This document shows, in pieces, positions 1 through 44,713 of a DNA stretch of 64,000 bases. The stretch covers positions 70,979 to 134,978 of the forward strand of contig JBNKTL010000001.1 of assembly GCA_050298055.1 (NCBI GenBank), read 5' to 3'. The notes under the pieces were generated by a model that did no database searches, was not told the DNA's origin, and worked only from the letters and a program-made list of their open reading frames with translations. Within the stretch, counting starts at the first letter, position 1; each line of letters opens with the position of its first letter. The position numbers and the translations under genes are program-made. This stretch comes from Spirochaetota bacterium (GTDB lineage: Bacteria; Spirochaetota; UBA4802; UBA5550).

Positions 1-522
1 GGTGTGGGTAAAGGATCACTCTACAGGTATTTTAAAAGCAAGGAAGATCTTCTCACTGAACTCCTTTCAGAGAAATATGAGGAGATCATCAAGGAGTTCA
101 ATGCCATCTTTTCTAAGGAACCCGACCTGATCAGGCAGATTGAAGAGTTGATACGGTTCTGGGTAACATTCATTGAAGAGAACCATGAGGTATATACGCT
201 TATCCAGAGTGAGGCTATTACACAGAAAACCGGAAACAGGGACATGTTCTATGATTATGTTATCACTCATCTCCCCATGTTTAAGGAGAGAGTGGTTTCA
301 TTTAATATTGAGAAGAAGATCAAGACTACCAGCTTTTACAGCGTGTTCTACGGAATACTCGGATTTATTGACGGTGTGGTCTATAAATGGACACGAAACA
401 ACATGAACTACCCGCTCAGGGATGAAATCCCGATAATCCTGGAGGTCCTTTTCAACGGCTTCATTGGTGAAAACTGGACAAAAAAGAGATACTATCAACC
501 TGCAGAAAAGAGGACAGAGTAA
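1..522 (+). CDS. TetR/AcrR family transcriptional regulator (5'-truncated by window edge)
   Basis: Frame open from base 1; begins inside the TetR HTH (GVGKGSLYRYFKSKEDLL) followed by a helical ligand-binding domain. Confidence 0.9.
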   Translation, partial: GVGKGSLYRYFKSKEDLLTELLSEKYEEIIKEFNAIFSKEPDLIRQIEELIRFWVTFIEENHEVYTLIQSEAITQKTGNRDMFYDYVITHLPMFKERVVSFNIEKKIKTTSFYSVFYGILGFIDGVVYKWTRNNMNYPLRDEIPIILEVLFNGFIGENWTKKRYYQPAEKRTE

Positions 523-595
523 AAACCTCTTCTCAGGCAGAGAGAATATCCACAGATACAAATTAACAACCAGCAATAATAAACAGGAGAACATC

Positions 596-3500
596 ATGAT
601 TAAACGTATTCTAGACTCAAAGCAACCGGTAATTATCTATAATCCCCCAAAAGTATTCAGCATGGATTACTTCAGGGAGTGCTACCGGTCCGGGGCCCTG
701 CCTGTATTCGATTCTGAATTCTTCAGCAACAGTGAGATTATCTCAATACTGGAAAAAGTATCAACTGAGGAGTTTCTCTTTGGTATCAGGCTGAAGGTTG
801 ATAACAGGGAGCTCGTAGATTATCTGAAAAATACGGATATTCTCAATCTCGATGTGGTGATTTTTCACTACAACAACTCCGAGGAGCTGAACACTTTTGA
901 GTTTGATAACCCCAATTATAAACTTGTCCTTGAAGTTATTGATATTGATATTAATGACACACTGGAGAAACTCCTTCCCCACGCCCTTATTCTCAAAGGA
1001 AATGAGGCCCCCGGAAAGGTCTCCAAGTTTACATCCATGATCCTTCTCCAGTACTACCGGGAAAAAACGGAATTTCCCGTTATTATTCACGGAGGCGTAG
1101 GATTCCATACCGCACCCGGAATTTTTGCCGCGGGAGCAAGCGGAATTGTACTTGATAACCAGCTCTACCTCACAGACGAAGCGCCCCTGTCGGACAACTT
1201 CAAAGAGGTCATATCCTCTCTCAAGGAGAGCGACACACAGTTAATAGGGGACTCACTCAATCAGAAGTACAGGTACAGATTTTTCGCGAAGCTTGGAACA
1301 AAGGTGGTGAAAGACCTCAAGGAGGAGGAGAGCCGCCTGAAGGGAAACAGTGCCCAGGCTGACAAGCTCTACACAAAAATATGCGATAAAATTGAATCCA
1401 TGGATAACAGCAGCGCCAATACCCTTCAGAGCCTTTTCTACCTTGGCCAGGATTCTGTCTTCTCAAAGCATTTTGTCAGGGAGACAAAAAAACTTCAGCT
1501 GGTAATAAGAAACCTCTTCCTCTCTATAGGAGAAGCCCTTGAAAGCATCGATGAGTATGATCCCCTTGTAGCCGATTCGGAAATGGCAAAAGAGCATAAC
1601 ACGAAATACCCCATCGTTCAGGGACCCATGGCTAACATCAATGATAATCCCGAGTTTGCCAAAAAGGTCTTTGAAGCCGGCGGACTTCCCTTCTTTGCCA
1701 TGGGGAACCTCCCCGAAGACCTTGCGGACAACATATTAAAAAATGGTTCGGAATTGTTCGGAAATTTCGGAGCAGGGCTTATCGGAACCCCCGATATAAA
1801 CAGGTCATTTGAGGGACACCTGAAAAGTGTAAAAAAATACGGGGTCAAATTTGCCCTTATAGCAGTGGGGATACCCTCGTATGTCAATAAGCTTGAATCC
1901 GAAGGCACAAAGACATATCTTCACACGCCCGCACTCCAGATGCTTGAAAACGCTATGAACAATAACTGTAACAGGTTTATTTTCGAGGGGAAAGAGGCCG
2001 GGGGGCATATCGGGACACTGACCAGTTTCGTTCTCTGGGAGATCGGTATTGAGAAGCTGATCAATGAGCCTGATGAAGTTTTATCCAATAAATCCGTCCT
2101 CTTTGCAGGTGGTATAGCCTCAAAAACCGGATCGCATTTTATATCCGGCATGTCTTCGCCCCTTGCAAAAAGGGGCGTAAAGGTAGGTATACAGGCCGGG
2201 ACCCCCTATCTTCTTACGGAAGAAATTCTTGAGACCGGCGCATTAAAGAAGCTGTACCAGGACCTGCTTATAGAGAGAAATATTACAACCGTTATTGGTA
2301 AAACCGTCGGTCTCTCAACACGGACGGTCGTATCGCCCTTTTCTGAGAAAATGCTTGAGAAAGAATACCAGATGATAATGGAGAAAGTCCCCCTGGGCGA
2401 AAGGAAAGAGTATTTTGAAGGAAGAAATGTGGGGTCACTTCTTATTGCCGCCAAGGCATATATTCCGGATTTTAAGAAGCTCAAAGAAGCGGGAAAACTG
2501 GAATATATTAACTATAATGATGAAGACCACTATGAAAAGGGCAACTTCCATACGGGCGAATCCATAGCCTTCTTCAACAGCCAGATCAAAATAGAGGACA
2601 TTCATAACGCGTACTTTGAGGAAAAGAAAAACCTCTCCTCCAACCTGAACATGCTTGAAATATACTCCGGCGAAAAGAACGAGATCGCCGACGAGATCGC
2701 GGTTGTGGGTATGGCATGTACCTTCCCCGACGCGGACTCCCCGGAGAAATTCTGGGAGAACATAGTCTCAAAGAAATATTCAATAAGGGAAGTCCCCGTG
2801 GAGAGGTTTGACAATTCACTCTACTACAGTGAGGACAGAAATGAAGAAGACAAGTCCTATTCAAAGATAGCGGGAGTTATTGACTATTTTGACTTCGACT
2901 ACAAGAAGTACGGATATAAGAAAACAGAAGCAAAACACCTCTCCCGGTCACAGCAGATGATCCTGGATACTGCCATGAAGGCAGTTGACAACGCGGGATA
3001 CCTTAAAGTGAAGAAACTGCCAAAGGATAAAACATCTGTCATTATCGGGACATGCCTGGGGAATGAGTTCGGCGACGACATGTACCTTCTCATCTACCAT
3101 CCGGAGATAAGGTACCATCTTGAGAAAAACGAAGAGTATAATAAACTCAGTAATAGTGATAAGGAACTCCTCCTTGAAGAACTCAAAAAGGGGATGGCAA
3201 AGGGGTTCAATCCCAAACTTCCCGACGGAGCGGCACTCAATGCCGAAGCATCAAGGATCGCGAAACACCTGGAAATTGAGGGAATCAACTATACCATAGA
3301 CGCGGCCTGCGCAACGTCACTGGCCGCACTTGACAATGCCAAGAGAGAACTCCTCTCAGGCGAATCGGATGCTGTCATCGTCGGCGGTATCCATACCAAC
3401 CTGGGGCCCGAAACATTTGTGGGCTTCGCGAAGATGGGGGCACTGTCAGGGAAGGGGTCCTTCCCTTTTGATGACAGGGCAGGCGGTTTTGTCATCGGTG

Positions 3501-6500
3501 AAGGGGCCGGTGTGCTGGTCCTCAAGAGGATGAAGGATGCCATCAGGGACGGTGATACTATCCACGCCGTTATTAAGGGGATAGGGTCCAGTTCAGACGG
3601 GAAAGGGAAAGCCATTGCGGCGCCGAAACCTGAAGGCCAGGGTTTCGCGGTAACCAGGGCCTTTGAGGACACAAAGTCCGGGATCACCACAGGTGATGTG
3701 GGATTTATTGAAGCCCACGGAACAGCAACTCTTATGGGTGACAGCACAGAGGTCAAGAACCTGATCAATACCTATAAAACCAATTCCCCTATCGGGATCA
3801 GCTCTATCAAATCACAGATAGGGCACCTCCTGGGAGGCGCCGGGGCAGCGGGAATGATAAAGGCCATCCTTGCGCTTAAGAACAAAACTCTTCCGCCAAA
3901 CGGCCAGTTTGAAACACCCTCCACGAAGTTCAACCTGGAGAACACCCCCTTCTTTGTTGTAACCGATGCCACGGAATGGAAGGTGGACGAGGGAAAAACC
4001 AGGATCGCGGGAGTCAGCTCTTTCGGTTTCGGGGGCATTAATTATCATGTCCTCATGGAGGAGTATACGGAAAACTACCGTCCCGTGAAAAGGGAGATAT
4101 TCAGAAATCCCGAATACGATTTCAATGACGACAGGATCGTTATCGCCGGTCTCGGTGTGGTGCTCCCGGGCGCCGATAACATCGATGATTTCTGGAAAAA
4201 TCTTGAAAGCGGAAAAAATGTCATCACAGAAATACCCGACTCGCGCTTTCACAATGAGTACTATGCCCGGGAGAAGGACCCCATTCTCCATATTCCCAAA
4301 ATCAAATCGGGTGTTGTCAATGACTACAAGTTCAACAACCTGAAATACAAGATACCTCCCTCAATCCAGAACTCAATAGACAGGGTCCAGTGCTTTGCCA
4401 TCGACTCAGCCACCCAGGCAATTGAGCAGGCGGGAATTAAAGATACATTTACAAACGGCAATAACACGGGAATTATTATCGGGACCTCAAGCGGAGAGAA
4501 ACATATTGAAAACATCTTCCGCACAAGAATTCCCTTTGTTAAAAAACTCATCAATTCACTGAAGGGTATAGATTCCGCTCAGCTCAAAAAAATATCAGAC
4601 GGCCTTGAAATATCCCTCAAGGAGAGATATGACAGAAATTCCGAAGACACTATTCCCGGTCTCCTCTCAAACATTGTGAGCGGCAGAATTGCCAATTTCT
4701 ACAACGCGAATGGCGCTAACTACACCATTGAGGCGGAATGCGCGTCCTCTGCAGTGGGAATACACCTGGCAATGAAGACCCTTCGTTCTAAAAAGGCCGA
4801 CTATATGATTGCAGGGGGCGCCGATACTAACCTCGCTCCCGCCAATCTCATGGCCTACCAGATGATCAAGGTGCTCTCCCCGGGAGAAAACAAGATCTTT
4901 GACAATACCTCATCAGGTGTCATCATGAGTGAGGGCGCAGCCGTAATGGTTCTCACCACCTATAAAAAAGCCAGGGAAGCAAATATGGATATAATCAGTG
5001 AGCTTTCAGACTTCAGCTGGAGGTCCTACGCCCATGAGAATTTCCTTGCGCCTACAACTGCCGGTTTCACAAAGACCCTTGACAGGTTTTATAAAAAAAG
5101 CCCTTTTTCAAGGAAACAGGTGGACTATATAGATGTTTTCGCATCATCCCATCCCGCGGTTGACGCATGGGAGAGAGACGCAATAGAGAAGTCATTCGTG
5201 AAGGATATCTATTTCGGCAATATTAAACCGGAAACAGGTTATTTCAGGTCAGCGAATCCCGCCGTGGTGTTGACGAAACTTGCCCTCATGGCAAAAAACA
5301 GGAAGATCCTCCCGAACTTCTCCTTCTCTGAAAAGAATACAATCATCCCAAAGGACTCAAAGATCAGGGCGGCTTCATTGTCCACGGACCTGAGCGGCAG
5401 GGACTCCATTAACCTGGCAGCAAACTTTTCCGGTCTCGGGGGAAATCATGCCCACACAATTATCCGGACCCTTCCCTCACGATTTATAAAATCCGCCGCA
5501 CGGACGCTCACTGCAGCGGCAAAGGCTGCTGCTCCGGAAGCACTCCCGGACAGCGCAGCGGCAGGAAAAGAGAAGGTCGCGGCTCTCCTCTCGGGACAGG
5601 GAGCACAGCATGCGGGAATGATGAAAGAGCTCTATGATAAATATCCGGTGATCCGTGAAATCATGGACAGGGGAGAGAAGATATTCAGAGAGGCAAGAGG
5701 ATATTCACTGCTGGAAATGATGTTCGGTGAGAATAAGGCCATAAACAGTACCGAGAACACACAACCCGCAATTTTTCTCTCTTCCGCCGCTCTTTACGAC
5801 TCTCTGAAAAAGAAGGGATTCCAGCCCGACTATATGATCGGCCACAGCGTGGGTGAGTTTACGGCCCTCTATTGCTCCGGCGTCCTCGGCTTTGAGGACG
5901 CCTTCCGGCTTATCCTCAAGCGAAGCGAGATGATGAAGGAGGCATCAGAGACGGTACCGGGCTCGATCATGGTTGCTTTCGCAAGTCCGGGAGATATTGA
6001 AAAACTGATTAAAAAATCGGGCCTGAATAATGTCTATCTTGCCAATAAGAACAGCGAGAACCAGACGGCCGTATCGGGGGGAGTTGAGGAGATCGATAAA
6101 TTCTGCTCATTCCTGAAAGGTGAAAAGGTCCAGTTCAGGAAACTGGACCTCTCCGGGGCATTTCATACCCCTCTCTTTCAGAAAGCCGCTGACGGGCTGA
6201 AGGACTATATCCGGGACCTCACATTTAACACCACGGACTATTCCCGGGTGATTTCCAATGTTACGGCAAAGAGCTATCCGGATGATCCCCGGGCAATAAA
6301 GGAACTCCTGGTGAAACAGCTTATTTCACCTGTGGAGTTTATCCAGTCTGTTGAGAACCTTTCAAAGCTGGGCGTAAAGCACTTTATGGAGATCGGACCC
6401 AACAGGATACTCACAAACCTCCTGAAAAACATCAGGATCAAGAACTACGGATCAATGCCCTCTGTAGACCCGAAAAAGGGACAGCTTGATTCTTTCGAGG

Positions 6501-9500
6501 CTTTCACCGGGTATCTTGAAGAAAATTCCCTCATCACTCCGGAGAAACCTCAAGTGGCGGAACCGGTCCCCGTGGCAGCCGTGCAGACCGGCGCCTTCAG
6601 GGGAGAAATGGCTCTTCCCGCCAGCGGAGATGCCGGTTTTGACAGCTTTCTCAGGGACAACAAAGACCATGTAAACAGCATCCTTTACAAGGAGTACCAG
6701 TATAACAGGGCCCTCCGGATGATGGAGTCACTGGACAGGTTTAACTTCTACACAGGGAGGATTGTGATATCCGGAGTCTCAATAGGGCTCCCCGGAAAAG
6801 GCCGCCACGTTTTCGAGGAGAACAACTTCGACAGGGTCCTCGCTGGAGAGAACTGCATAGACCCCATCTCCCAAAAAGATAAGGAGAACATGATCAAGAA
6901 GAATATTACCAGGATATTCAAGCAGCCTGACGGCAGCGCGCGGTTCCAGGACATCACGTCAACGGAAGATGTCATACACCTTGCGGGACAACTGGGATAC
7001 TTTGATTTAAAAGAGGACTATGGCATCGACTATGACTATGATATCACCTACGGGCTTGCCATAGCCGCGGGTATTGAAGCGCTCAAGGACGCGGGAATAC
7101 CCCTTGTGATGAACTACCAGAAGACCACAACCGGAAGCCTGATCAAAAAGGGGTATTCTCTCCCCAAAGAGATGCAGGAGGGAACAGGTGTTATCTTCTC
7201 TTCCGTTTTCTCCAGCTTCGAGACCCTCATCAACGAGATATACGGATACAATAAGGACCAGTTCTATAAGAACGTCTATAAGGACTTTGAAAGCCTTTAC
7301 TATTTCCTCATGGAGACGGTCCCCGATGCCAGGGTCAAGGAGAAAGTAACGGATTGGTTCTTCAACCTTAAGGAAGAGGTAAAGGGACATGAAGAGTATA
7401 AGTACGACAGAAACCTCCTCATGAACCTTATCCAGATGGGGGCCCCCTTCTTCGCCCAGTATATAAAGGCCAAGGGGCCGAACACGCAGCTCAATGCCGC
7501 GTGCGCCACCACAACACAGGCTGCAGGTGTCGCCGAGGACTGGATCAGGATGGGCAGGTGTGAAAGGGTCATCATCATAGGCGGTGAAGCTCCCACTACA
7601 GAAGTCCAGAACGAATGGATCACCGCCGGTTTCCTCGCGGTAGGCGCCGCGACCGTTAAAAAAACCGTAAAGGAAGCGGCAAAACCCTTTGACAAGAGCA
7701 GAAACGGAATGATCGTGGGAAGCGGCGCCGTAGCCATGATCGTGGAAAGGGAAGACAGCGTCAGGGAGAGGGGTTTTAACGGACAGGCCGAACTCCTGGG
7801 AACATATATTAAGAACAGCGCCTTTCATCCCACACGGCTGGATGTTGATCATATCACTCATGAGATGAAGTATTTCATGGAAAGCATGAAAAGGGCGCAC
7901 GGCCTCGAGGACAACTATGCCGACTCACTCCTCTTCATGTCCCATGAGACCTATACTCCCGCACGGGGAGGGTCCGCCGATGCGGAAATATCGGCCCTCC
8001 AGAACACATTTCCGGACAACTATAAAAATATTCTCATTACCAATACAAAGGGTTACACGGGACACCTTCTCGGCGTTGCCGTGGAAGATGCTATCCTTGT
8101 GAAGGCCCTTCAGAAGGGTATTGCGCCTCCCATAGCAAACCTTACGGATATTCCCGACAATTTCAAGGGACTGAAATTCAGCAGGGGAGAAAAGAACAGT
8201 TACCGGTACGGGGTCCACTTTTCGGCCGGGTTCGGATCACAGTTTGCCCTGATGTTTATCAGGAGAATCGAAGAAAAGAACAAAGAGAACAATCCCGTCT
8301 ACACCGCATGGCTGCAGAGAATTACCGGGATGACAAATCCCCAGCTGAAGATAATAAACAGGACCCTCTGCATAGACAGCGATCCCGCGGCTCCGGCAGT
8401 TAAACCCCGGGAGATACCCGCGACTGCTGTCAAAGAAACAGCTGCTCCCGGTCCTTCCGCTCCTCCTGCGGCAGGTATTGATTCGGCTGCAATTCTCAAG
8501 AAGGTGCAGGATATTATCGCCTCACAGACAGGGTACACCATGGACATGCTGGAAGAGGGGCTGGACCTGGAAGCGGACCTGGGAATCGACACCGTTAAAC
8601 AGGTGGAGATATTCGGCCTCATCTCATCGGAATACGACCTGGAGGTACCCGAGGACCTGAAGCTCTCGGAGCTCAACACAATCAGCAAGATCGTGGGATA
8701 TGTGGGAGGAAAAGTTACCCTTGCCGCTCCCGCCGCTCAAACGGCTGCAGGCGCAGATACTTCCGGAATACTCAACAAGGTGCAGGATATTATCGCCTCA
8801 CAGACAGGATACACCGTGGATATGCTGGAGGAGGGACTTGACCTGGAAGCGGACCTGGGAATCGACACCGTCAAGCAGGTGGAGATATTCGGCCTCATCT
8901 CATCGGAATACGACCTGGAGGTACCGGAAGACCTGAAGCTCTCGGAGCTCAACACAATCACTAAAATCGTTGGATATATTGGCAGGAAGGTTACCGTTGC
9001 CGCTCCTGCTGCTTCAACCGGGAAACCGGGGTCAGAGCAAACCGTTTCCCCGGCTGCCGGACAACAATCCGGTCCGGGAACTATAAGCAGGTTTGCCGTG
9101 GAGGCCGTAAAAACGAAGATGATCAGTGAAGAGAAAAATATCTTCGAGAACAAAACAATACTCGTCTCTCCCGATAAGCAGGGATTTTCCAAAAAGCTTA
9201 TTGCTGAAATTGAGAAGAGAAAGGGAAAGGCAGTTACCATTGGAAAGGGAAAGGACCATGAGATAAAATGTGACTTCAGCAAACTTGATGATGTTGAAAA
9301 CGCCGTGAGAACGGTCATTGAAAAACATCCTGAGATCAGCGGCTTCATACACCTTCTTCCCCTGGACAACTATTTCGGAAAGAGGGCCCTTAATGAGAAT
9401 GAAATAAATACCTCGGTAAAATCCCTCTTCATTATGGTAAAGGGACTCGCGGAGAAACTTAACGGACCCGGTTCAATTATTTCATCCCTCTCCTTTGACT

Positions 9501-11584
9501 CGGTAGTCTTTCCTTATACAGGAATGGATGCGGATATCCATCCCCTCTTTGCCGGAATAGGCGGTATGATGAAGACCATTAACAAGGAGTTTAAGGATAC
9601 GTTTGTGAAAATGGTGGATTTCTCATACAACGATCCGAAGAAAAACTCAGGAAAGATCATCGACCTCTATATGAGAGAACTCCTCTCGGGGGATACACGG
9701 GTAGAGACCGGCTTCCATAAAAAAGAGAAGTATGTAATTTCACTGAAAAAGAAGTCCCCTGAGAAGGGAGAGAGCCTGGTCAGGACCGGGGACACGCTCC
9801 TTGTTACTGGGGGCGCCAGGGGAATTACCTTTGAAATTCTGAAGGAGGTTGTGAAGAAGAACGAAAATCTCAGCCTCATTCTCCTTGGCCGAAGTGATAT
9901 CGAGGCCATTGACAGCGAATACCTGGCCGAAAGCGCCGACGAACAGTTTATCTTTAAATCACTCAAGGAGAAGATGAAGGGGTCAAAACCCCTTGAGATC
10001 AGGAAGGCCACGGAAAAAGCCCTTAATATTAAACAGACCCGGGCGAACCTGGAATTTCTGAGATCCCGGGGCGTAGAGACAATCTACCATTCCGTTGATG
10101 TCTCAAACCGGAAGGCCCTTGCGGATGTTCTCAAGGGACATGAGAAAATCGACGGTATCATTCACGCGGCAGGTGTGGAGATATCCAACTTCATCCCCAA
10201 CAAGGAACTCAGGACCTTCAACCTGGTCTTCGACACAAAGATCACCGGGATGATGAACCTTCTTGAAGTCCTTAAAGAGAGGGACTACAGGTTCCTCATC
10301 GGCTTTTCTTCGGTTGCCGCCAAGTTCGGAAATGAAGGGCAGATAGACTATTCCGGCGGAAATGACATGCTCTGCAAGATGATCATCAGGGAGAGCATCA
10401 GCAACGGCAAGAATGTCAAGATCTTCGACTGGACAGCGTGGAAAGATATCGGAATGGCCACAAACGAGACGGTTAAGAAGGTCCTCATTGAGAACGGGGT
10501 GGAACTCCTTCCCGTGGATGCCGGAGTCAATTTCTTCATGGAAGAACTTAACGACAGCAGCGCCCGGGAGGTGCTTGTTGCCAACACAATGCATGAATTT
10601 GATCCCGACGGGATCTTCCCCGGGGGCAGCGAAAAGGGGGAGAGCTCAAAATTCCCCTTCCTGGGAGAGAAGCTCGAGGAGAGAGACAATTCCGTTGTTT
10701 ACAGCAGAGTGCTTGATATTAAAAACGACAGGTTCCTTCTTCACCATGTCATAGACGAGGTGCCTCTCTTCCTGGGGTCCACGGGAGTTGAAACCATGGC
10801 GGAAGCCGCTGCAACTCTTGCAGGAGAGAGCCGGAAGGTCTTTGAAGTTACGGAATTTGAAATTCCCTACGGAATAAAGATACTGAAGGGAAGACCCAGG
10901 GAGATCCTGGTTGAGGCTGAAAAGGCCCCCGGTGATAAGGAGATGTTCAGGTGTACGATAACCTCTCAGTTCAGGAACACAAAGGGAGAAGTGATGGGCG
11001 ATCCCACATTTCACTACAGGGGGACCTACCGGTTCACGGAAAAGGAAAATGAGGAGATAAAAATTGAGATCCCGAAACTCCCCTCACTGGAATACCAGGG
11101 GGAAGCGGATGATATCATGTACCATCCCCAAAGGCTCTTCATGGATGACCTCTTCAAGACCATCGATGACATGGTTGCCTTTGACGGGAAGACACTTCTC
11201 ACAAAGTTCCATAACAGAAGCAGCAACAAGTACTTTAATCATATCAGTGACCCGGAGCTCCAGACAGATGCCATCCTGGTTGACGGGATGTTCCAGACCG
11301 GGGGACTCCTTGAATTTCTCTCAACAGACGAGGTGGTGCTTCCCTACAGGATCGGAAGCCTGAAGTTCCACAGGGACGTCAATACAAATGATGAATATCT
11401 CTGTATTACGGAAAAATCCTCAAGTGATGAGAAGACCAACAGGTACCAGCTGAAGCTTATAGACAGCCAGGGGAACCTCTTTATCTCCGTTGAAGATTTC
11501 GAGATGATACGTGTGGGGAAACTTCCCGGAGAGTTCCAGATCAGGGACAGGATCAGGATACTGGAAGACGCAAAAGTTAACTGA
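596..11584 (+). CDS. Giant type I PKS / PUFA-synthase-like megasynthase: FabK/nitronate-monooxygenase-like ER x2 - KS - KS(His-less) - AT - KS - ACP - ACP - KR - DH
   Basis: ATG 596 with RBS CAGGAGA. Motifs: PIVQGPM/EAGGH (FabK-like); DAACATS/HGTAT/KSQIGH (KS1); EAECASS (KS2); GQGAQ/GHSVG/GAFH (AT); NAACATT/HETYT/KGYTGH (KS3); LEADLGIDTVK x2 (ACP); GGARGIT/YSGGN (KR); HVIDEVP/DGMFQ (DH). Confidence 0.95.
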   Translation: MIKRILDSKQPVIIYNPPKVFSMDYFRECYRSGALPVFDSEFFSNSEIISILEKVSTEEFLFGIRLKVDNRELVDYLKNTDILNLDVVIFHYNNSEELNTFEFDNPNYKLVLEVIDIDINDTLEKLLPHALILKGNEAPGKVSKFTSMILLQYYREKTEFPVIIHGGVGFHTAPGIFAAGASGIVLDNQLYLTDEAPLSDNFKEVISSLKESDTQLIGDSLNQKYRYRFFAKLGTKVVKDLKEEESRLKGNSAQADKLYTKICDKIESMDNSSANTLQSLFYLGQDSVFSKHFVRETKKLQLVIRNLFLSIGEALESIDEYDPLVADSEMAKEHNTKYPIVQGPMANINDNPEFAKKVFEAGGLPFFAMGNLPEDLADNILKNGSELFGNFGAGLIGTPDINRSFEGHLKSVKKYGVKFALIAVGIPSYVNKLESEGTKTYLHTPALQMLENAMNNNCNRFIFEGKEAGGHIGTLTSFVLWEIGIEKLINEPDEVLSNKSVLFAGGIASKTGSHFISGMSSPLAKRGVKVGIQAGTPYLLTEEILETGALKKLYQDLLIERNITTVIGKTVGLSTRTVVSPFSEKMLEKEYQMIMEKVPLGERKEYFEGRNVGSLLIAAKAYIPDFKKLKEAGKLEYINYNDEDHYEKGNFHTGESIAFFNSQIKIEDIHNAYFEEKKNLSSNLNMLEIYSGEKNEIADEIAVVGMACTFPDADSPEKFWENIVSKKYSIREVPVERFDNSLYYSEDRNEEDKSYSKIAGVIDYFDFDYKKYGYKKTEAKHLSRSQQMILDTAMKAVDNAGYLKVKKLPKDKTSVIIGTCLGNEFGDDMYLLIYHPEIRYHLEKNEEYNKLSNSDKELLLEELKKGMAKGFNPKLPDGAALNAEASRIAKHLEIEGINYTIDAACATSLAALDNAKRELLSGESDAVIVGGIHTNLGPETFVGFAKMGALSGKGSFPFDDRAGGFVIGEGAGVLVLKRMKDAIRDGDTIHAVIKGIGSSSDGKGKAIAAPKPEGQGFAVTRAFEDTKSGITTGDVGFIEAHGTATLMGDSTEVKNLINTYKTNSPIGISSIKSQIGHLLGGAGAAGMIKAILALKNKTLPPNGQFETPSTKFNLENTPFFVVTDATEWKVDEGKTRIAGVSSFGFGGINYHVLMEEYTENYRPVKREIFRNPEYDFNDDRIVIAGLGVVLPGADNIDDFWKNLESGKNVITEIPDSRFHNEYYAREKDPILHIPKIKSGVVNDYKFNNLKYKIPPSIQNSIDRVQCFAIDSATQAIEQAGIKDTFTNGNNTGIIIGTSSGEKHIENIFRTRIPFVKKLINSLKGIDSAQLKKISDGLEISLKERYDRNSEDTIPGLLSNIVSGRIANFYNANGANYTIEAECASSAVGIHLAMKTLRSKKADYMIAGGADTNLAPANLMAYQMIKVLSPGENKIFDNTSSGVIMSEGAAVMVLTTYKKAREANMDIISELSDFSWRSYAHENFLAPTTAGFTKTLDRFYKKSPFSRKQVDYIDVFASSHPAVDAWERDAIEKSFVKDIYFGNIKPETGYFRSANPAVVLTKLALMAKNRKILPNFSFSEKNTIIPKDSKIRAASLSTDLSGRDSINLAANFSGLGGNHAHTIIRTLPSRFIKSAARTLTAAAKAAAPEALPDSAAAGKEKVAALLSGQGAQHAGMMKELYDKYPVIREIMDRGEKIFREARGYSLLEMMFGENKAINSTENTQPAIFLSSAALYDSLKKKGFQPDYMIGHSVGEFTALYCSGVLGFEDAFRLILKRSEMMKEASETVPGSIMVAFASPGDIEKLIKKSGLNNVYLANKNSENQTAVSGGVEEIDKFCSFLKGEKVQFRKLDLSGAFHTPLFQKAADGLKDYIRDLTFNTTDYSRVISNVTAKSYPDDPRAIKELLVKQLISPVEFIQSVENLSKLGVKHFMEIGPNRILTNLLKNIRIKNYGSMPSVDPKKGQLDSFEAFTGYLEENSLITPEKPQVAEPVPVAAVQTGAFRGEMALPASGDAGFDSFLRDNKDHVNSILYKEYQYNRALRMMESLDRFNFYTGRIVISGVSIGLPGKGRHVFEENNFDRVLAGENCIDPISQKDKENMIKKNITRIFKQPDGSARFQDITSTEDVIHLAGQLGYFDLKEDYGIDYDYDITYGLAIAAGIEALKDAGIPLVMNYQKTTTGSLIKKGYSLPKEMQEGTGVIFSSVFSSFETLINEIYGYNKDQFYKNVYKDFESLYYFLMETVPDARVKEKVTDWFFNLKEEVKGHEEYKYDRNLLMNLIQMGAPFFAQYIKAKGPNTQLNAACATTTQAAGVAEDWIRMGRCERVIIIGGEAPTTEVQNEWITAGFLAVGAATVKKTVKEAAKPFDKSRNGMIVGSGAVAMIVEREDSVRERGFNGQAELLGTYIKNSAFHPTRLDVDHITHEMKYFMESMKRAHGLEDNYADSLLFMSHETYTPARGGSADAEISALQNTFPDNYKNILITNTKGYTGHLLGVAVEDAILVKALQKGIAPPIANLTDIPDNFKGLKFSRGEKNSYRYGVHFSAGFGSQFALMFIRRIEEKNKENNPVYTAWLQRITGMTNPQLKIINRTLCIDSDPAAPAVKPREIPATAVKETAAPGPSAPPAAGIDSAAILKKVQDIIASQTGYTMDMLEEGLDLEADLGIDTVKQVEIFGLISSEYDLEVPEDLKLSELNTISKIVGYVGGKVTLAAPAAQTAAGADTSGILNKVQDIIASQTGYTVDMLEEGLDLEADLGIDTVKQVEIFGLISSEYDLEVPEDLKLSELNTITKIVGYIGRKVTVAAPAASTGKPGSEQTVSPAAGQQSGPGTISRFAVEAVKTKMISEEKNIFENKTILVSPDKQGFSKKLIAEIEKRKGKAVTIGKGKDHEIKCDFSKLDDVENAVRTVIEKHPEISGFIHLLPLDNYFGKRALNENEINTSVKSLFIMVKGLAEKLNGPGSIISSLSFDSVVFPYTGMDADIHPLFAGIGGMMKTINKEFKDTFVKMVDFSYNDPKKNSGKIIDLYMRELLSGDTRVETGFHKKEKYVISLKKKSPEKGESLVRTGDTLLVTGGARGITFEILKEVVKKNENLSLILLGRSDIEAIDSEYLAESADEQFIFKSLKEKMKGSKPLEIRKATEKALNIKQTRANLEFLRSRGVETIYHSVDVSNRKALADVLKGHEKIDGIIHAAGVEISNFIPNKELRTFNLVFDTKITGMMNLLEVLKERDYRFLIGFSSVAAKFGNEGQIDYSGGNDMLCKMIIRESISNGKNVKIFDWTAWKDIGMATNETVKKVLIENGVELLPVDAGVNFFMEELNDSSAREVLVANTMHEFDPDGIFPGGSEKGESSKFPFLGEKLEERDNSVVYSRVLDIKNDRFLLHHVIDEVPLFLGSTGVETMAEAAATLAGESRKVFEVTEFEIPYGIKILKGRPREILVEAEKAPGDKEMFRCTITSQFRNTKGEVMGDPTFHYRGTYRFTEKENEEIKIEIPKLPSLEYQGEADDIMYHPQRLFMDDLFKTIDDMVAFDGKTLLTKFHNRSSNKYFNHISDPELQTDAILVDGMFQTGGLLEFLSTDEVVLPYRIGSLKFHRDVNTNDEYLCITEKSSSDEKTNRYQLKLIDSQGNLFISVEDFEMIRVGKLPGEFQIRDRIRILEDAKVN
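8501..8980 (+). repeat. Tandem near-identical ACP-coding repeat, period 276 bp
   Basis: AAGGTGCAGGATATTATCGCCTCACAGACAGG starts at 8501 and again at 8777; differences are mostly synonymous. Confidence 0.95.
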
Positions 11585-20521: not shown

Positions 20522-20944
20522 TTAACTGTTTTCCAATGTATTAATGAGATCAATTCCTGAAACGATAAAATCTTTCACATTGAATGTTACGAGAACAAGT
20601 CCATAGTGCAGCGCCTGCGCGGCAATGATACTGTCTATTGCTGATAGAGGGGATCCCGCTTTTTCACATTTCGCTATCAGATCTCCCCAGGAAAGAGAAC
20701 ATTCAAGATCAAAGGGAATAATACGGTCTTTATAGTGTTCAATGATTGACTCAAACCATGTGGTGAGGTCTTTTTTCTTTTTACTCCGTGGAAGCTTTTG
20801 AATGCCCCGGTACAGTTCACCGGCGGTAATTACACTGATATAGAGATTGTCACTGTTTTGACTGTGGATCCATGAAAGTGTATCTTCGTTGGGAGAGGTT
20901 TTTGTCAGCTCTGAAAGGACGCAGGTATCGAGAAGGTATCTCAT
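20522..20944 (-). CDS. vapC: VapC-like PIN-domain toxin
   Basis: YLLDTCVLSE, GEL, IDSIIAAQAL, LVTFNVKDF; 4-bp overlap with the antitoxin. Confidence 0.95.
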   Translation of the reverse strand: MRYLLDTCVLSELTKTSPNEDTLSWIHSQNSDNLYISVITAGELYRGIQKLPRSKKKKDLTTWFESIIEHYKDRIIPFDLECSLSWGDLIAKCEKAGSPLSAIDSIIAAQALHYGLVLVTFNVKDFIVSGIDLINTLENS

Positions 20945-24852: not shown

Positions 24853-25079
24853 CGATTAATATTTACACCATTATATAATAATGGTTGTATATGTTGGTAG
24901 TTAATGATAAGGTAATGGCTCATCTGTGTAGAGAATAAACATTATTGAATAAAAGATAACTGATGTGTCAGGGACGCATTGTTGGGATTTTATTAAATTA
25001 TGTATATTTTAGACATACAGCCGAGACATTATTGATAATGACTCAGCTTTGCGATAAAAATTCTGAGCATGGAGGTTTT

Positions 25080-25934
25080 ATGAAACCCTTTAAATTTGAT
25101 AATACTGCTTATATTCTTTTTCTTTCATTGGCTCTTTGTCTTGGATTTCAGTTTACGGCACATGCCGATGATCCCGGGCATGAGTTCAGTGTTCGTGGCG
25201 GACTGGGGGGCGGCAAGATACTCTGGGGTTATATTGACCATGGAAGTTCAAGCGGTGACCTGGGAACAGGCCCGGGAGTATCGGTCAACCTGAACCTGAT
25301 GTACGCTTATTCACTTCTTGGAGTTGAAGGAAGCTTTACTGCTGTCCCTCTCAGCACACTGGAGTGGGAGGATGAGGACGAATTTAATGTAACCCATAAT
25401 TACAAGTCCACGGGCAGCGGGGTTTTTACAATTCTTGATCTCAAAGTGGGTTTAAGGCTCTTTGCGGAACCTGAAGATATGGGTTATACTTTTATCTTTG
25501 CGGGATACAGGACATGGCAGACAGAGAGAGACCAGGATACGGTTGAGGTTGACGGCTTCAAAATCCCCACGACTGTTAAAAGGGAAGCCAATGGAAGCGG
25601 ATGGATATTTGGATATCGCGATTTCAGTACTATCGGTCCCAATGATGGATTTGCTATCGTGGTACAATCGGGCCTCTGGTTTGGTAAAGCTCCTGTTGAT
25701 GAGATGAAGACAGATGGAGTTAAATCGCCTCTTAAAGAAAAAGACAACTTAAGTATTGGAGCCGAGCTGGGCGGAGGTATTGCCCTGCAGAATATTGGTC
25801 TTTCTGTTGTTGGAGGTATCAGGGGAGAAGTAAATTTAACTGTCTTCGACGATCCATCCGCCCCGGCAGACGAAGAGTCGGTGTTCGGTTTTGGTATGCT
25901 GGAATTTTTTGTTGAGGCAACGAAGAGGTTTTAA
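25080..25934 (+). CDS. Putative outer-membrane beta-barrel protein
   Basis: GGAGGT RBS, signal peptide ending AHA, alternating beta-strand pattern, C-terminal Phe. Confidence 0.7.
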   Translation: MKPFKFDNTAYILFLSLALCLGFQFTAHADDPGHEFSVRGGLGGGKILWGYIDHGSSSGDLGTGPGVSVNLNLMYAYSLLGVEGSFTAVPLSTLEWEDEDEFNVTHNYKSTGSGVFTILDLKVGLRLFAEPEDMGYTFIFAGYRTWQTERDQDTVEVDGFKIPTTVKREANGSGWIFGYRDFSTIGPNDGFAIVVQSGLWFGKAPVDEMKTDGVKSPLKEKDNLSIGAELGGGIALQNIGLSVVGGIRGEVNLTVFDDPSAPADEESVFGFGMLEFFVEATKRF

Positions 25935-26117
25935 TCTTTTTTATCACATTGATGCAGTACTCCACGTACTGTATCAATGTGAGATAAATATCCTGATTTA
26001 CATTTTCGAATATTTTTCTCATAACACAATTTTCTCCTTGAACATTACTTCTTCAGGTGTATTAACTTTTAAGTAATTGAATTTTATTTATAATTAATAT
26101 TTATCCGCGAGGTGACA

Positions 26118-26978
26118 ATGAAAAGTTTTGCTGCTGTTTTAACAGGTGCGATTTTAATAACTGTTTTCCCGGCTGGAGATCTTTTTTCCGGTACAGGAAA
26201 AAAGCCCATCAAATGGATCAGTGCGTCGTCAACGCTTAAAGGGAAGAACAACAGGTACGGCGCCGGGAACCTGCTGGACGGGAGTTCCGGATCGTGGTGC
26301 GAGGGTGTAAAAGGCGACGGTATAGGAGAGAAGATTACCCTTCTGTTCCGAAAGGAGGTAACTCTCACATCACTCTCTCTCATCAACGGTCTGAAGAGCG
26401 GGAAGTACTTTGGCAAAAACAACCGGGTAAAGGGGATGAAGATAAACGGTGAAAGCCATATCCTGCAAGATTCACCCGGACCGCAGAAAATCACACTCCA
26501 TAGACCGGTAAAAACAAAAAAACTTGTCCTGGAGATAGAGTCTGTCTATCCCGGTACAAAGTGGAAGGATACCTGCATTACCGAGCTCGGAATCAACACT
26601 CCCGTAAAAGTTACCGGTGACTACGGAGACGGCCTCATGGGAAGTATTTCAGGCGTTGACTGGCGTACACCGGAAGGTCTCTTTGACAAGTACGGCAGCA
26701 TAATCATTGCCTTCAACAGGGCCCTTCTGTTTTTCGGGGAGAGCGTTCCCTGCGGGGACGAATCATGCCCCATGACATATTCAGGATACTGCCGGAGAGT
26801 ATCAAAGGGAAAGTACAGGTGCACTTACAGGGAAAACTGCTATGGAAGGATGGAGGGACCGAATATGCCGGTCATTCGCGTCTGTAAAGAACATAACAGC
26901 ACATTTATTCTCCGGATTGTGGAGGGAAAACCGGAAATTGAGTTTAAGGGAAAGAGGGAGGTTCTGGTGAAGGATTAG
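26118..26978 (+). CDS. Secreted protein with discoidin/NADase-type glycan-binding-like domain and Cys-rich C-terminus
   Basis: ASSTL...YGAGNLLDG...SWCEG..GDGIGE, NNRVK, DTCITE pattern. Confidence 0.75.
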   Translation: MKSFAAVLTGAILITVFPAGDLFSGTGKKPIKWISASSTLKGKNNRYGAGNLLDGSSGSWCEGVKGDGIGEKITLLFRKEVTLTSLSLINGLKSGKYFGKNNRVKGMKINGESHILQDSPGPQKITLHRPVKTKKLVLEIESVYPGTKWKDTCITELGINTPVKVTGDYGDGLMGSISGVDWRTPEGLFDKYGSIIIAFNRALLFFGESVPCGDESCPMTYSGYCRRVSKGKYRCTYRENCYGRMEGPNMPVIRVCKEHNSTFILRIVEGKPEIEFKGKREVLVKD

Positions 26979-28282: not shown

Positions 28283-29473
28283 CTATTCTCCCGCAAGGAA
28301 CTTATATGCGGCAATTTTTTTTCTCAGGTAGAACGCCGTATACTCATTGGCCCACTCCCTTTTCTTCATGAGAAGGACCCTGTATATCTCCAGGATCGCC
28401 TGAGAGTTCTTCTTGAGGTTAAGACTGTATTTTTCAATAGAGTGGAAATTTGTCACAAAGAGCTTTTTCAGAAGAAGGGAAGTAAACCTGTTGCCGTCGG
28501 GAGAAAACGATATGTCCTCACCTTCAATACCAATATTCAAAAGCCTGTTTTCAGATATCCTGTAGATATGGACCACCTGGTTTTTCAGGACCGCTACAAT
28601 TCCTGCATTGTTTGAGTAGGTGAGGTTGGTGTTCAGGGAATTCGAGATGATTCTTCGTGACCGTCTCCTCACAGTATCATAGAGATTGAGAGAATAAGTG
28701 CCGGGGGAACCCGATCGATAAAAGAAATACCTGTTGTTTATCCATGAAATCTCGGTAGCAGAGGTGAGGTTGCGGATCGTCCCTGTCCACCTCCGGGTTA
28801 TGATCTTTGCCAGATAATATCCGCCGCTGCCGCTGATGATAAGCTTCTTAAGCCTGTTCGGGGAAAAATAGAGCATGTTTACACCGTTCTTCTGCACAAT
28901 ATCCGCATACTTGATCCTTCTGTAGACCAGCCTTTTTATACCGGTTACGGGAAAGTGCTCAAGAAACCCACTGCTGCCCTCGTAAATGATTGAATCACCC
29001 TCTGGAGATTGAGTAAAATCCACAAAGAGATTGGGAGTTTTAAGGATATTAACTTTTTTCCGTTCAATATTGAGGAGTATGGTTTCACCCAGGGGAAAAT
29101 CCCTTTTTTGTGAAAGAAACCTCTTCACAAAGAGGTACCTTTTGTTGTTGCTGATCTGGCAATGGGTCACCACTCCCTCAAACCTGAGGATCTCTTCCTT
29201 CCTGTGATGAATAAGGTTGTACCGGAAGATCACGTTTGACCCGGAGAGTTCCCTGGTATAGATTATCTCTTTACCGGAGATCCAGTTTGCAAAGATCACA
29301 TCCCTGTCAACAAAGAGAGAATGTATGGCCTTATGGGTGTCAATCTTCCGGTCAAGGAGCAGTTTGTAGGACCTGGAGTCCTCTTTTATATAGATTTTAT
29401 CAAGATTAATGTCCTTGCCGGCAGAAGAAACAACCGAAAGGACAAAAACTGCAAATATAAGAATTCTCTTCAA
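28283..29473 (-). CDS. Secreted TolB-like/beta-propeller hypothetical protein
   Basis: Signal peptide; repeated SPEGD/FSPN/FSPDG turns; TTG start with GGAG RBS. Confidence 0.7.
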   Translation of the reverse strand: MKRILIFAVFVLSVVSSAGKDINLDKIYIKEDSRSYKLLLDRKIDTHKAIHSLFVDRDVIFANWISGKEIIYTRELSGSNVIFRYNLIHHRKEEILRFEGVVTHCQISNNKRYLFVKRFLSQKRDFPLGETILLNIERKKVNILKTPNLFVDFTQSPEGDSIIYEGSSGFLEHFPVTGIKRLVYRRIKYADIVQKNGVNMLYFSPNRLKKLIISGSGGYYLAKIITRRWTGTIRNLTSATEISWINNRYFFYRSGSPGTYSLNLYDTVRRRSRRIISNSLNTNLTYSNNAGIVAVLKNQVVHIYRISENRLLNIGIEGEDISFSPDGNRFTSLLLKKLFVTNFHSIEKYSLNLKKNSQAILEIYRVLLMKKREWANEYTAFYLRKKIAAYKFLAGE

Positions 29474-35134: not shown

Positions 35135-36829
35135 ATGTCAAAACCGGTCATCGTTCAAAGCGATAATACAATTCTTCTTGAAGTCAATAATCCGGACTTT
35201 GAGACTGCCCGTGATTCAATATCCAAATTCTCGGAACTTGAGAAGAGTCCCGAACATATCCATACCTACCGGATAACACCTCTTTCCCTCTGGAACGCCG
35301 CATCTTCCGGGCTTGGGTACAGGGATATTCTGGAATTCCTGAAGGAACATTCACGGTATGAAATTCCGGACCTGGTACTTGTTACCATTGAAGAGCAGAT
35401 GAAGAGATACGGGCTTCTTAAACTGGTCAGGGAAGATGATCGTTATCTTCTCATGTCCGAAGATCCCGTTCTCTTTTCCGAGATACTGAATCACAGAAAA
35501 GTCATGGATTTCATCGATAAAAGACTTGATGACACAAAGGCCATCCTCAAGCCTGATTCCCGGGGCCATCTGAAACAGGCCCTTATCAAGATCGGTTTCC
35601 CCGTTGAAGACCTTGCGGGATACGAGGAGGGAGACAGCTGCTCCCTGTCACTGAGGTCCACAAGCTCCCGGGGAGTTGAGTTCAGTATCAGGGACTACCA
35701 GGAAAGCGCCATCAACTCCTTCTACCGGGGCGGCGGCCCCGAGGGCGGAAGCGGGGTTGTGGTCCTTCCCTGCGGCGCGGGCAAGACAATTATCGGAATA
35801 GGCGTTATGTCACTCATGGAGAGAGAGACCCTCATTCTGGTAACAAATACCGTTGCCATTCGGCAGTGGAAAGAGGAGCTTCTGGATAAAACCGATCTCG
35901 GTCCCGAAAACATCGGAGAATATTCCGGAGAAAAAAAGGAGATAAAACCGGTAACCATTGCCACCTACAATATCCTGACTTACAGAAAAAAGAAAAACGA
36001 CCCCTTTCTTCACTTCCGGGTATTTAACTCAAAAAACTGGGGCCTCATTATCTATGACGAGGTACACCTCCTGCCCGCCCCGGTTTTCAGAATGACTTCC
36101 GAGATACAGTCAAAGAGGAGGCTGGGACTTACAGCCACCCTGATTCGGGAAGATGGCCTTGAAACAGATGTTTTCAGCCTTATCGGTCCGAAGAAGTTTG
36201 ATATGCCGTGGAAGATCCTCGAGAAGACAAAATGGATTGCAACTGCCACATGTACCGAAATAAGGGTTGAGCTTCCGGAAGAGATAAGGATAAAATATTC
36301 TGTTTCCCGGGACAGGGACAAGTTCCGCCTTGCATCAGAGAACATCAGAAAGTTTCCTGTTACGGAAACACTTCTCGAAAAGCACAGGGGAGCAAATATA
36401 CTGATCATCGGCCAGTATATTTCACAGCTCAAAGAATTCGCGGAGAAGCTGAAGGTTCCTCTTATCACCGGAAGCACTCCCGTTTCCGAAAGGGAGAACC
36501 TCTACAGCCGGTTCAGGAAGGGTGAGATAAAGACACTCCTTGTTTCCAAGGTCGCCAACTTTTCCATTGACCTTCCCGATGCAAATGTTGCCATACAGAT
36601 TTCAGGTACATTCGGTTCCCGGCAGGAAGAGGCCCAGAGGCTTGGAAGAATACTCAGGCCGAAAAAAGGTGACAACAGCGCTTATTTCTATACGATTATT
36701 ACATCCAACTCCGTCGAGGAAAAGTTTGCCCATAACAGGCAGCTTTTCCTCACGGAACAGGGTTATACGTATATCATCAACAATGAAGAGATGTTTGAAC
36801 AGAGCTGTAAGGGAACCTCTATATATTGA
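35135..36829 (+). CDS. XPB/Ssl2-like DNA repair helicase
   Basis: SPEHIHTYRITPLSLWNA, LPCGAGKT, DEVH, TAT, QRLGRILR. Confidence 0.96.
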   Translation: MSKPVIVQSDNTILLEVNNPDFETARDSISKFSELEKSPEHIHTYRITPLSLWNAASSGLGYRDILEFLKEHSRYEIPDLVLVTIEEQMKRYGLLKLVREDDRYLLMSEDPVLFSEILNHRKVMDFIDKRLDDTKAILKPDSRGHLKQALIKIGFPVEDLAGYEEGDSCSLSLRSTSSRGVEFSIRDYQESAINSFYRGGGPEGGSGVVVLPCGAGKTIIGIGVMSLMERETLILVTNTVAIRQWKEELLDKTDLGPENIGEYSGEKKEIKPVTIATYNILTYRKKKNDPFLHFRVFNSKNWGLIIYDEVHLLPAPVFRMTSEIQSKRRLGLTATLIREDGLETDVFSLIGPKKFDMPWKILEKTKWIATATCTEIRVELPEEIRIKYSVSRDRDKFRLASENIRKFPVTETLLEKHRGANILIIGQYISQLKEFAEKLKVPLITGSTPVSERENLYSRFRKGEIKTLLVSKVANFSIDLPDANVAIQISGTFGSRQEEAQRLGRILRPKKGDNSAYFYTIITSNSVEEKFAHNRQLFLTEQGYTYIINNEEMFEQSCKGTSIY

Positions 36830-37448
36830 GCTTTACTCCCACTCTCGCAATAAATCCGGACATGTTAAATTCAACCCCATCCTTACTGGGATAGATTCCT
36901 CTATAGCCGCCATCAAATGTAAACTGCACATTAGACGCCTGGCTTGGCTGCAGGGAGAATGAGATAAGAACCTGCCAGGCAAAGCCGGAATAGAAGTTCG
37001 TCTGGTCTTTGGATGAATGTGTGCCGGATCCATCGGTATATTCCGGTATTGAATCATCCAGCATCATAAAGGAGTACCCGAGACCGGCAATAAGTGAAGG
37101 TTCCACTGTAATAAATTCTTTGAGGTTTGGAAGCTTCACCTGCGCGTTAAAAAAGAAAGGAAAGACGAATACATTGGTTTCGGCTTTCACATCGGCTGAT
37201 GTCATTCCTATATCCTCTTCACCAAGCTTCCTGTCCCACTGCAGCCAGAAAAAATCCCCCTCAAGCCCTACACCAAAAAAAGGGTCCAGGTTGAAAAAGT
37301 AGTTAAGGCTTATATCGAGCCCGAATTTCTCAGCATCACTGGCATATGATGTCCCGATCTTCCCATTGAATTCATTACCATAGGAGAGGCTCTTACCGGT
37401 TTGAAGGATAACAAGAAAGACTGCCAGAGTTAAAAATAACTTTTTCAT
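36819..37448 (-). CDS. Putative outer-membrane beta-barrel protein
   Basis: Signal peptide, amphipathic strands, ends GFIARVGVKLNI. Confidence 0.7.
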   Translation of the reverse strand: MKKLFLTLAVFLVILQTGKSLSYGNEFNGKIGTSYASDAEKFGLDISLNYFFNLDPFFGVGLEGDFFWLQWDRKLGEEDIGMTSADVKAETNVFVFPFFFNAQVKLPNLKEFITVEPSLIAGLGYSFMMLDDSIPEYTDGSGTHSSKDQTNFYSGFAWQVLISFSLQPSQASNVQFTFDGGYRGIYPSKDGVEFNMSGFIARVGVKLNI

Positions 37449-39407: not shown

Positions 39408-39650
39408 TTATCTGTTGATAAGTCATTTATTTGATGTTAATTATTCTCATATTTTATGAATAACTTTTTTATTTGACAATTAACTCAAATTAGGATTATG
39501 TCATATTTAATTTATAACAGATTATCCACTTCAATGTTATCCCGTAAATCCTGAACTGTTCAGCGTTTAGTGACTTTATTAACATATCAGGATAGACTAC
39601 TACAATTACTATTAATTAATAATTAATTAATAATATTAATAGCAGGAAAG
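39408..39650. promoter_or_regulatory. oriC part 2 with DnaA boxes, DnaA-trio-like run and AT-rich unwinding element
   Basis: TGTTGATAA 39413, TTATCCACT 39522, CTACTACAATTACTATTA 39597-39614, then an almost pure A/T tract to ~39641. Confidence 0.8.
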
Positions 39651-39655
39651 GCAAT

Positions 39656-40774: not shown

Positions 40775-40820
40775 TAGTTTTCTTGATAGGCCCTTCTTTT
40801 TATTACCGGTATATCCCTCT

Positions 40821-41927: not shown

Positions 41928-42163
41928 TGCTGAGCAGCAGTTAAAAGCAGTCGAAATACTGAAGTTTCACAACACGATTTTATATTTTTCAGATATACAA
42001 TTTCTTGACTAAAAGAGGCTCAATATTATCATGGATATAAATTTCCGGTGATAAATTCAGCGAACTATGCTTTCCCTTTACCGGGTAAGGAGTAAAAATA
42101 ATTTTTAATCGTAATAACCGGAAACGTTTTGATCCTGTAATTACCAGATAGTCTATTCATAAA

Positions 42164-42508: not shown

Positions 42509-42511
42509 ACG

Positions 42512-44649
<2,138 letters not shown>

Positions 44650-44713
44650 GGACTGGATTGAATTGTAAAATCAGAAAATACAAGAATAGAGAGCAGGAAG
44701 CAGGGATAGAAAG

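Follow-up and report, generated by a model that had tools for sequence, protein, structure and literature searches.

Threonine in Place of Serine at the Phosphopantetheine Site of Acyl Carrier Domains in Type S and Type R Lipid Synthases

The Synthase Gene and Its Domains

The stretch of DNA analyzed (64 kb, referred to as the window) carries a long gene for a single-chain type I synthase with the domain order ER-KS-CLF-AT-KS-ACP2-KR-DH, as recognized with Pfam and NCBIfam profiles. Read from a TTG codon, the frame covers 464..11584 on the + strand (3706 aa). The likelier start is the ATG at 596, because the gene directly upstream ends at 522. That gene (4..522, +) encodes a TetR-family regulator (PF00440) whose top NCBIfam match is FadR (NF053878), far under cut-off; from its position it is a possible regulator of the synthase.

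All domains of the synthase are on the + strand. A FabK/PfaD-type enoyl reductase (1598..2389, aa 379-642) was detected with PF03060 and with TIGR03151 (E 4.6e-24, under the cut-off of that model). It is followed by the first ketosynthase, KS1 (2690..4090; PF00109/PF02801/PF16197 and motifs), with a complete Cys949/His1085/His1121 set. KS2 (4112..5476) retains Cys1426, but a motif check found neither His motif there, and for this reason it is regarded as CLF-like. The acyl/malonyl transferase (5588..6430; PF00698, TIGR00128) has the GHSxG motif as GHSVG, with Ser1795. A further ketosynthase, KS3 (6731..8323; profiles and motifs), lies after the AT and has Cys2347, His2494 and His2534. This post-AT KS3 is a marker of the Type R/S family and is found together with Thr-containing ACPs. 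ACP1 (8501..8704) is supported by PF00550, an AlphaFold2 model and a structure match, and ACP2 (8777..8980) by PF00550. The catalytic half of a ketoreductase (9794..10447; PF08659) contains both TGGxxGI and YxxxN. The PKS-type dehydratase (10655..11524) is represented by weak PF21089 and PF14765 matches and an HxxxxxP motif with its His motif at aa 3428. No thioesterase domain was detected in the synthase with Pfam. The KS1, KS3, AT, KR and DH motifs had been described as intact in a first-pass annotation, and catalytic motifs are indeed found in all five.

Threonine at the Attachment Site

Acyl carrier proteins normally need a Ser to attach the carrier arm. In both ACPs of the synthase, as the first-pass annotation had noticed, the motif reads LEADLGID-T-VKQVEI. 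Thr2710 (codon ACC, 8591..8593, +) is the phosphopantetheine site of ACP1 by alignment to E. coli ACP, and Thr2802 (ACC, 8867..8869, +) is that of ACP2 by motif. In a phmmer alignment the Thr occupies the position of E. coli Ser36, the Ser of DLGADSLD. The AlphaFold2 model (pLDDT 92.9) has helix II beginning at this Thr. The modeled domain matches solved ACPs (TM 0.92 to 6lvu) and its best structural matches are all ACPs, so that the predicted structure has the helical fold of PF00550; the Ser of GxDS expected at the start of helix II is a Thr in both copies. That annotation had also seen no Ser-ACP elsewhere in the protein. Pfam gives two PP-binding stretches and an ACP profile gives no third. 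A shifted attachment site was considered and rejected. Across 829 aligned rows, Ser is not conserved in any other column of the ACP, and the other conserved Thr residues (TGY and one in a late helix) are away from helix II.

The two ACP copies are identical at 210 of 237 nt, with 14 synonymous and 8 non-synonymous codon differences. A 606-bp contig of the same assembly, C146, contains two more whole Thr-ACP copies with about 90% nucleotide identity to those of the window, and its first 70 nt are identical to the window from 8674. C146 may be a collapsed repeat or a strain variant of the array. The assembly has collapsed or misjoined the array, which, from these sequences, probably has more than two copies. 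Read depth over the ACPs is raised, but it sums other organisms and therefore gives no copy number. The earlier caution that the two copies are duplicates and so not independent evidence fits their similarity; the array is probably longer than that caution supposed, and relatives supply abundant independent evidence.

The genome also contains a Type R-like Thr-ACP paralogue split over two contig ends (C38:45779-49195, +, and C53:28563-32633, -). The C38 edge holds KS, AT and the start of KS3, and C53 holds the end of the paralogue with five Thr-ACPs, 37-39% identical to the window ACPs. The two pieces are probably one gene, the join being deduced from their content. A six-frame scan found nine ACP motifs in the genome (two in the window, two on C146, five on C53), and all have Thr. 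A sequencing or assembly error was rejected as the origin of the Thr, with these nine sites in the genome and hundreds elsewhere. The first Thr codon is also covered by two contigs of a public run, with zero differences, although that run may be the source sample.

Threonine as a Family Trait

Searches seeded with ACPs are biased, so relatives were picked by KS3 instead. The best 120 proteins near the window synthase have 334 Thr, 2 Ser and 2 gaps at the attachment site: 115 proteins are all-Thr, two have one extra Ser copy, two have Thr plus a truncated match and one is without an ACP match. The best 120 near a Chloroflexota Type R enzyme have 401 Thr, no Ser and 2 gaps. Together these 240 proteins have 735 Thr and 2 Ser. 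A private mutation would have been indicated by homologues that mostly carry Ser, and nearly all carry Thr. Across 829 distinct ACP rows, drawn from 238 proteins with a KS3, the site is Thr in 816, Ser in 11, Ala in one and Gly in one; the Ala comes from a match off the ACP array and the Gly from a degenerate copy. One more Ala copy, the last of seven, occurs in the fragment P0139. Judged from these alignments, Thr is a family trait and not a private lesion.

Two further tallies are biased to Thr by their seed words and do not serve as the main test. In 78 GTDB loci (from the best 80 of 529 confirmed matches), 241 of 244 sites are Thr, with codons ACG (123), ACC (73), ACA (25) and ACT (20). 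In the other, of 121 proteins, the ACP arrays have 2-8 copies. Reassignment of ACN to Ser was rejected by inference, because unrelated bacteria and archaea use all four Thr codons. The best named matches of the window synthase are labeled Spirochaetes/Spirochaetota and Desulfobacterales. Holders of the family are labeled Spirochaetota, Desulfobacterales, Chloroflexota, Myxococcota, Actinomycetota, Calditrichaeota, Bacteroidales, Bdellovibrionota, Thermoplasmatota and Heimdallarchaeota.

The best 150 matches of a word-free HMMER search included 94 all-Thr and 45 all-Ser proteins, and only one of 66 Ser-majority proteins, P0185, has KS3 above 200 bits. Several Ser fragments with DSVKQ are without the KS3 region or domain and hence unplaced. 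The residues that flank the site change with the attachment residue (T-V-K-Q at 1012 sites, S-I-K-R at 281), which suggests that the sequence around the ACP site could be as important as the PPTase. In a quick, midpoint-rooted KS1 tree (a random subsample, 113 of 258 candidates), 38 PfaA-like Ser proteins group in a single clade with support 99; six rows on long branches, probably KS domains picked in error, were left uninterpreted. All-Ser P0185 has a fused PPTase and six matches with Ser at the site, four of them typical ACPs; in the same tree it groups with two Thr proteins (SH-aLRT 99). Given this position amid Thr proteins, Ser and Thr look interchangeable in the family, and the P0185 Ser is read, on that quick midpoint-rooted tree, as a Thr-to-Ser reversion. 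The Type S proteins P0028, P0070 and L070 have one divergent Ser-ACP after the Thr array, possibly with a separate function.

Phosphopantetheinyl Transferases

The sole PPTase of the genome, as detected with Pfam and a purpose-built profile, is on C53 behind the Type R-like paralogue, and an acyl-CoA dehydrogenase-like gene is found there as well. The PPTase has the His, GxDxE and (F/W)xxKExxxK motifs, which we take to be the catalytic motifs of Sfp-type enzymes. No PPTase was found anywhere in the 64-kb window.

PPTases are common partners of the family. In the 78 loci (best 80 of 529), a PPTase is fused to the synthase in 10 and is the next gene in 22. A further 8 have it farther off in the locus, 24 have room for one but none, and 14 are undecidable. 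Among 20 PPTase-fused proteins, 19 are mostly-Thr. The linked enzymes are of the PF01648/TIGR00556 type. Their His, Asp, Lys-Glu and Lys columns do not vary over all 60, and the second acidic residue is Glu in 57/60, in a set selected at E<1e-15 by profile score, a selection that would drop dead copies.

Is the PPTase specialized for Thr? The linked enzymes lie apart from nine of ten Sfp-type enzymes used for comparison, a small set with long branches. In a tree of the 60 linked and 10 other PPTases, there are two label changes, and one of the others as well as the PPTase of P0185 fall inside the linked group. No residues exclusive to the PPTases of Thr partners were found in this comparison. 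The motif K(R/K)xxEWxxGRxxxK was tried as a Thr-specific signature and rejected, since it also occurs in all-Ser P0185, whose PPTase is of the same type as those of Thr partners, and in part in L063 and in solved EntD/AcpS sequences. From these sequences, specialization for Thr is an even call.

Other Carriers and Fatty Acid Synthesis Genes

The assembly is 98.3% complete. At that completeness, searches of it gave no AcpP over cut-off, no FabA/Z (0 matches to PF07977), no PlsX and no standalone FabF/B; of eight FabF/B matches, five are in megasynthases and three are weak and partial. No biotin carboxylase was matched in it, nor in 10 of 28 holders. The genome has two carboxyl transferases and ten PF01553 acyltransferases. 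Its only Ser carriers are a PCP and an 83-aa carrier, both in an NRPS/PKS cluster (C37:1-8402) that includes an asparagine-synthetase-like gene. The standalone 83-aa carrier (C37:2888-3136) is best matched by the models for cispentacin AmcB and DltC, under cut-off. If the C37 cluster is functional, the single PPTase would have to serve Ser carriers too.

The loss of FabF and FabZ was rejected as proof of replacement by the synthase. Of 61 genomes of the order, this one (G000) included, 51 have AcpP, 2 have FabF over cut-off and 20 have FabA/Z, and the scarcity of FabF and FabA/Z holds whatever the synthase; because FAS II genes are so scarce across the order, their absence here does not show replacement. 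Over the 61 related genomes, which as kin are not independent, AcpP over cut-off is absent from 7 of 8 relatives with an ER-bearing synthase and from 3 of 53 without. Two of the seven AcpP-less holders, G010 and G038, have weaker standalone ACPs under the cut-off, and the ER-bearing G002 keeps AcpP.

Of 29 holder genomes scanned, 11 are archaeal, and five of these, chosen for low match counts, were examined closely. All 21 PF00550 matches in the five (completeness not given) are inside a Thr synthase, and four of these genomes have only one PPTase, fused to that synthase. Among the remaining six, one has many NRPS-like carriers. Synthases with a C-terminal fused PPTase are found in archaea-labeled L108, L112, L113, L116, L118, L133, L135 and L136, and likewise in P0087, P0105 and P0118. 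The labels are Thermoplasmatota and Heimdallarchaeota; a binning error is possible. P0105, labeled Thermoplasmatota, has the order ER-KS-AT-KS-ACP6-KR-DH-PPTase, with an N-terminal ER match.

Recurrent neighbors of the synthases include biotin carboxylase (10 loci), biotin carrier (9), PfaD-like ER (9) and acyl-CoA dehydrogenase (11). These genes, which comprise parts of acetyl-CoA carboxylase, fit malonyl-based fatty acyl synthesis. Biotin carboxylase frames of 1771-1949 aa (G009:C103:13117, G010:C1:1471103, G038:C57:28644, G055:C127:3984) lie directly downstream of a Type S gene or its ACP-bearing piece; from their biotin carboxylase domain, they are possibly single-chain acetyl-CoA carboxylases.

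Comparison with Known Systems

On domain order and phylogeny, the window synthase belongs to the Type S secondary lipid synthases. The text of Shulse & Allen 2011 (PMC3098273) describes YP_002604438 of Desulfobacterium (Desulforapulum) autotrophicum HRM2 as Type S, with ER-KS-CLF-AT-KS-ACP3-KR and a PPTase, and proposes a core FAS role for it. The window synthase has the same domain order, likewise on one polypeptide, and is 59% identical to the HRM2 enzyme (P0283) over KS3. The two (the window synthase as P0001) fall in one 25-row KS1 clade with SH-aLRT 100, and all three HRM2 ACPs carry Thr as well. They differ in two respects. The Type S entry in that text lists one organism and no DH, whereas the window synthase has one. 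The HRM2 PPTase, YP_002604439, is the next accession, whereas that of the window genome is on another contig; a PPTase gene in direct proximity is given there as the case 'most often' for secondary lipid synthases. The words 'threonine' and 'serine' have 0 occurrences in the main text of that paper, figures and alignments aside.

Type R is given in the same text as KS-MAT-KS-ACPn-KR with a downstream PPTase, in Solibacter, Koribacter, Elusimicrobium and Roseiflexus. This layout is that of the C38/C53 paralogue. As in the window synthase, Thr-ACPs are present in Roseiflexus-labeled matches and other Chloroflexota. Type R lacks the ER and the CLF-like KS2, both of which the window synthase has. 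The post-AT domain of Type R is called a CLF in the text of PMC3098273, but Cys-His-His is kept in the proteins checked.

The best NCBIfam match of the window synthase is PfaA (TIGR02813), at 919 bits under a cut-off of 1010. PfaA shares with it the tandem ACPs and a near-identical LEADLG(I/V)D core. In contrast to the window synthase, PfaA has ACPs that read D-S-I-K-R and no KS3, and it forms a separate KS clade. With the sub-threshold score, the Thr-ACPs and no FabA-type DH in the genome, the enzyme is not a PfaA-type PUFA synthase. E. coli AcpP has the same fold and site position as the window ACPs, but its residue is Ser.

That comparison supplies the main obstacle, by analogy, to Thr-phosphopantetheinylation. 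According to PMC3340395, E. coli ACP(S36T) does not function and cannot receive 4'-PP; PMC13343975 describes it as not acylated, and in both papers it is a standard non-modifiable control. GXDS is called 'common to all ACPs' in the text of PMC6619796. A natural Thr-ACP was not found in the open-access literature (subscription journals, figures and bioRxiv supplements being outside this scope). In the accessible portions of PMC3908369, PMC13291983, PMC4882568, PMC6619796 and bioRxiv 2025.01.28.635281 the word 'threonine' is absent, and 'polyketide', 'fatty acid synth' and 'acyl carrier' are all absent from PMC10087280. Both the Type S family and its suggested core-FAS role are thus already on record; the open-access searches gave no report of the Thr site, of how widely it occurs or of PPTase fusions in archaea.

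Proposed Function and Alternatives

Three options had been offered in the first-pass annotation: Thr-phosphopantetheinylation by a specialized PPTase, a trans-acting ACP, or a non-carrier role. Of these, Thr-phosphopantetheinylation is favored here, while a PPTase specialized for it is an even call. Thr-phosphopantetheinylation is considered likely; the same good likelihood is given to the fuller proposal, in which the modified Thr serves an iterative synthase of fatty acyl chains. Thr is suggested as the attachment residue because the site otherwise takes almost only Ser and an active-looking PPTase stays linked, also in genomes with no other carrier match. Ala, Ile and Met are each one base from Thr, yet the site tolerates almost only Ser.

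The ACPs of the synthase would be working carriers with Thr in place of Ser. An Sfp-type PPTase would move 4'-phosphopantetheine from CoA onto the hydroxyl of the Thr that opens helix II; in this genome that enzyme would be the single one on C53. Judging from the motifs, the AT would load malonyl, KS1 with the CLF-like KS2 would condense, and KR, DH and the FabK-type ER would carry out full reduction. With no thioesterase, KS3 is suggested, speculatively, to prime or off-load the chain. The product would probably be a saturated acyl chain, passed on as acyl-CoA to membrane lipids, a route proposed because AcpP and PlsX were not found. Several findings count against this scheme: no biotin carboxylase was found in the genome, which leaves the source of malonyl-CoA unaccounted for, no PPTase is beside the window synthase, 24 of the 78 loci likewise have none despite room for it, and all 15 bacterial holders tested outside the order keep an AcpP.

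A trans-acting ACP is an improbable alternative. Here the Thr domains would stay apo as docking or scaffold units and a separate Ser-ACP would carry the chain in trans. The unmodified E. coli S36T (PMC3340395) agrees with this, as do the AcpP present in 15 of 15 bacterial holders outside the order, the AcpP of G002, the sub-cut-off standalone ACPs of G010 and G038 and the 83-aa Ser carrier of this genome. However, that carrier sits in an NRPS/PKS cluster with AmcB and DltC as its best models, and a scaffold needs neither a hydroxyl at the site nor a fused PPTase. Because the five selected archaeal genomes have no other carrier match, a trans-acting ACP fails as a general explanation; it is possible in the 15 bacteria that keep AcpP.

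It is quite improbable that the enzyme uses no phosphopantetheine at all and acts on acyl-CoA directly, its Thr-ACPs being non-carriers. The S36T precedent (PMC3340395), the missing thioesterase domain and the biotin carboxylase not found in the genome are in keeping with such an enzyme. However, PPTases with invariant catalytic columns are fused or adjacent, the AT Ser is intact and the ACPs come in arrays. The non-carrier role offered earlier is also a poor fit with Ser as nearly the sole swap and with the fused PPTases.

Use of the Thr hydroxyl for another linkage, for example an acyl group esterified directly to it or some other arm derived from CoA, is very improbable. A constraint to hydroxyl residues suits any O-linked chemistry, but the linked enzyme is a PF01648/TIGR00556 PPTase and no other transferase was seen among 13 recurrent-neighbor representatives, five of which are without a Pfam match. 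A private inactivating mutation, remnant gene or assembly error is hardly credible: the assembly of the array is faulty here, and the available text of PMC4882568 suggests that D. autotrophicum pfa-like genes 'might be remnant genes', but Thr is encoded, by all four codons, in hundreds of long open frames from bacterial and archaeal genomes, all nine motifs in this genome are Thr in two paralogues of low ACP identity, and the KS3-picked homologues (334:2 and 401:0 Thr:Ser) contradict it.

Returning to Thr-phosphopantetheinylation, a wider reading of the same sequences is moderately favored: O-threonyl phosphopantetheine would be normal in a widespread family, AcpP would be displaced in this lineage and some archaeal chains would be self-activating. 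This reading would cover both bacterial and archaeal lipid synthases, and a natural orthogonal Thr-ACP/PPTase pair would follow. A fused-PPTase chain such as P0105 would be the only ACP-based system of some archaea.

To our knowledge, the phosphopantetheine Ser is treated as invariant. If the proposal holds for a Thr family that spans many phyla in both bacteria and archaea, a secondary alcohol would be an acceptable substrate for some PPTases. Annotation rules under which a carrier domain lacking Ser counts as inactive would then be wrong about such clusters, Type R/S synthases expressed in another host could fail unless their own PPTase is supplied, and there might be an orthogonal pair for labeling. 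The proposal also bears on how acyl chains are made in sulfate reducers with incomplete FAS II and in some archaea. Cultured holders of the family include D. autotrophicum HRM2, Desulfobacter and Roseiflexus.

Other Features of the Window

A plasmid comparison gave no match, and no holder of the family is listed among the RNA records. The ORFs at 24963-25934, 28283-29473, 36819-37448, 60315-61409 and 61677-62324 (209-396 aa) have no Pfam match, and the first two have no NCBIfam match either. A PIN-domain gene is at 20522-20944 (-), and the gene at 26112-26978 (+) encodes a protein matching the NAD glycohydrolase translocation F5/8-type domain. A parA-like gene occupies 62994-63740. The genes dnaA-dnaN-recF-dciA-gyrB-gyrA are at 38064-47158, and the GC skew turns, with low GC, near 36-40 kb; the region near dnaA-gyrA is likely the replication origin.
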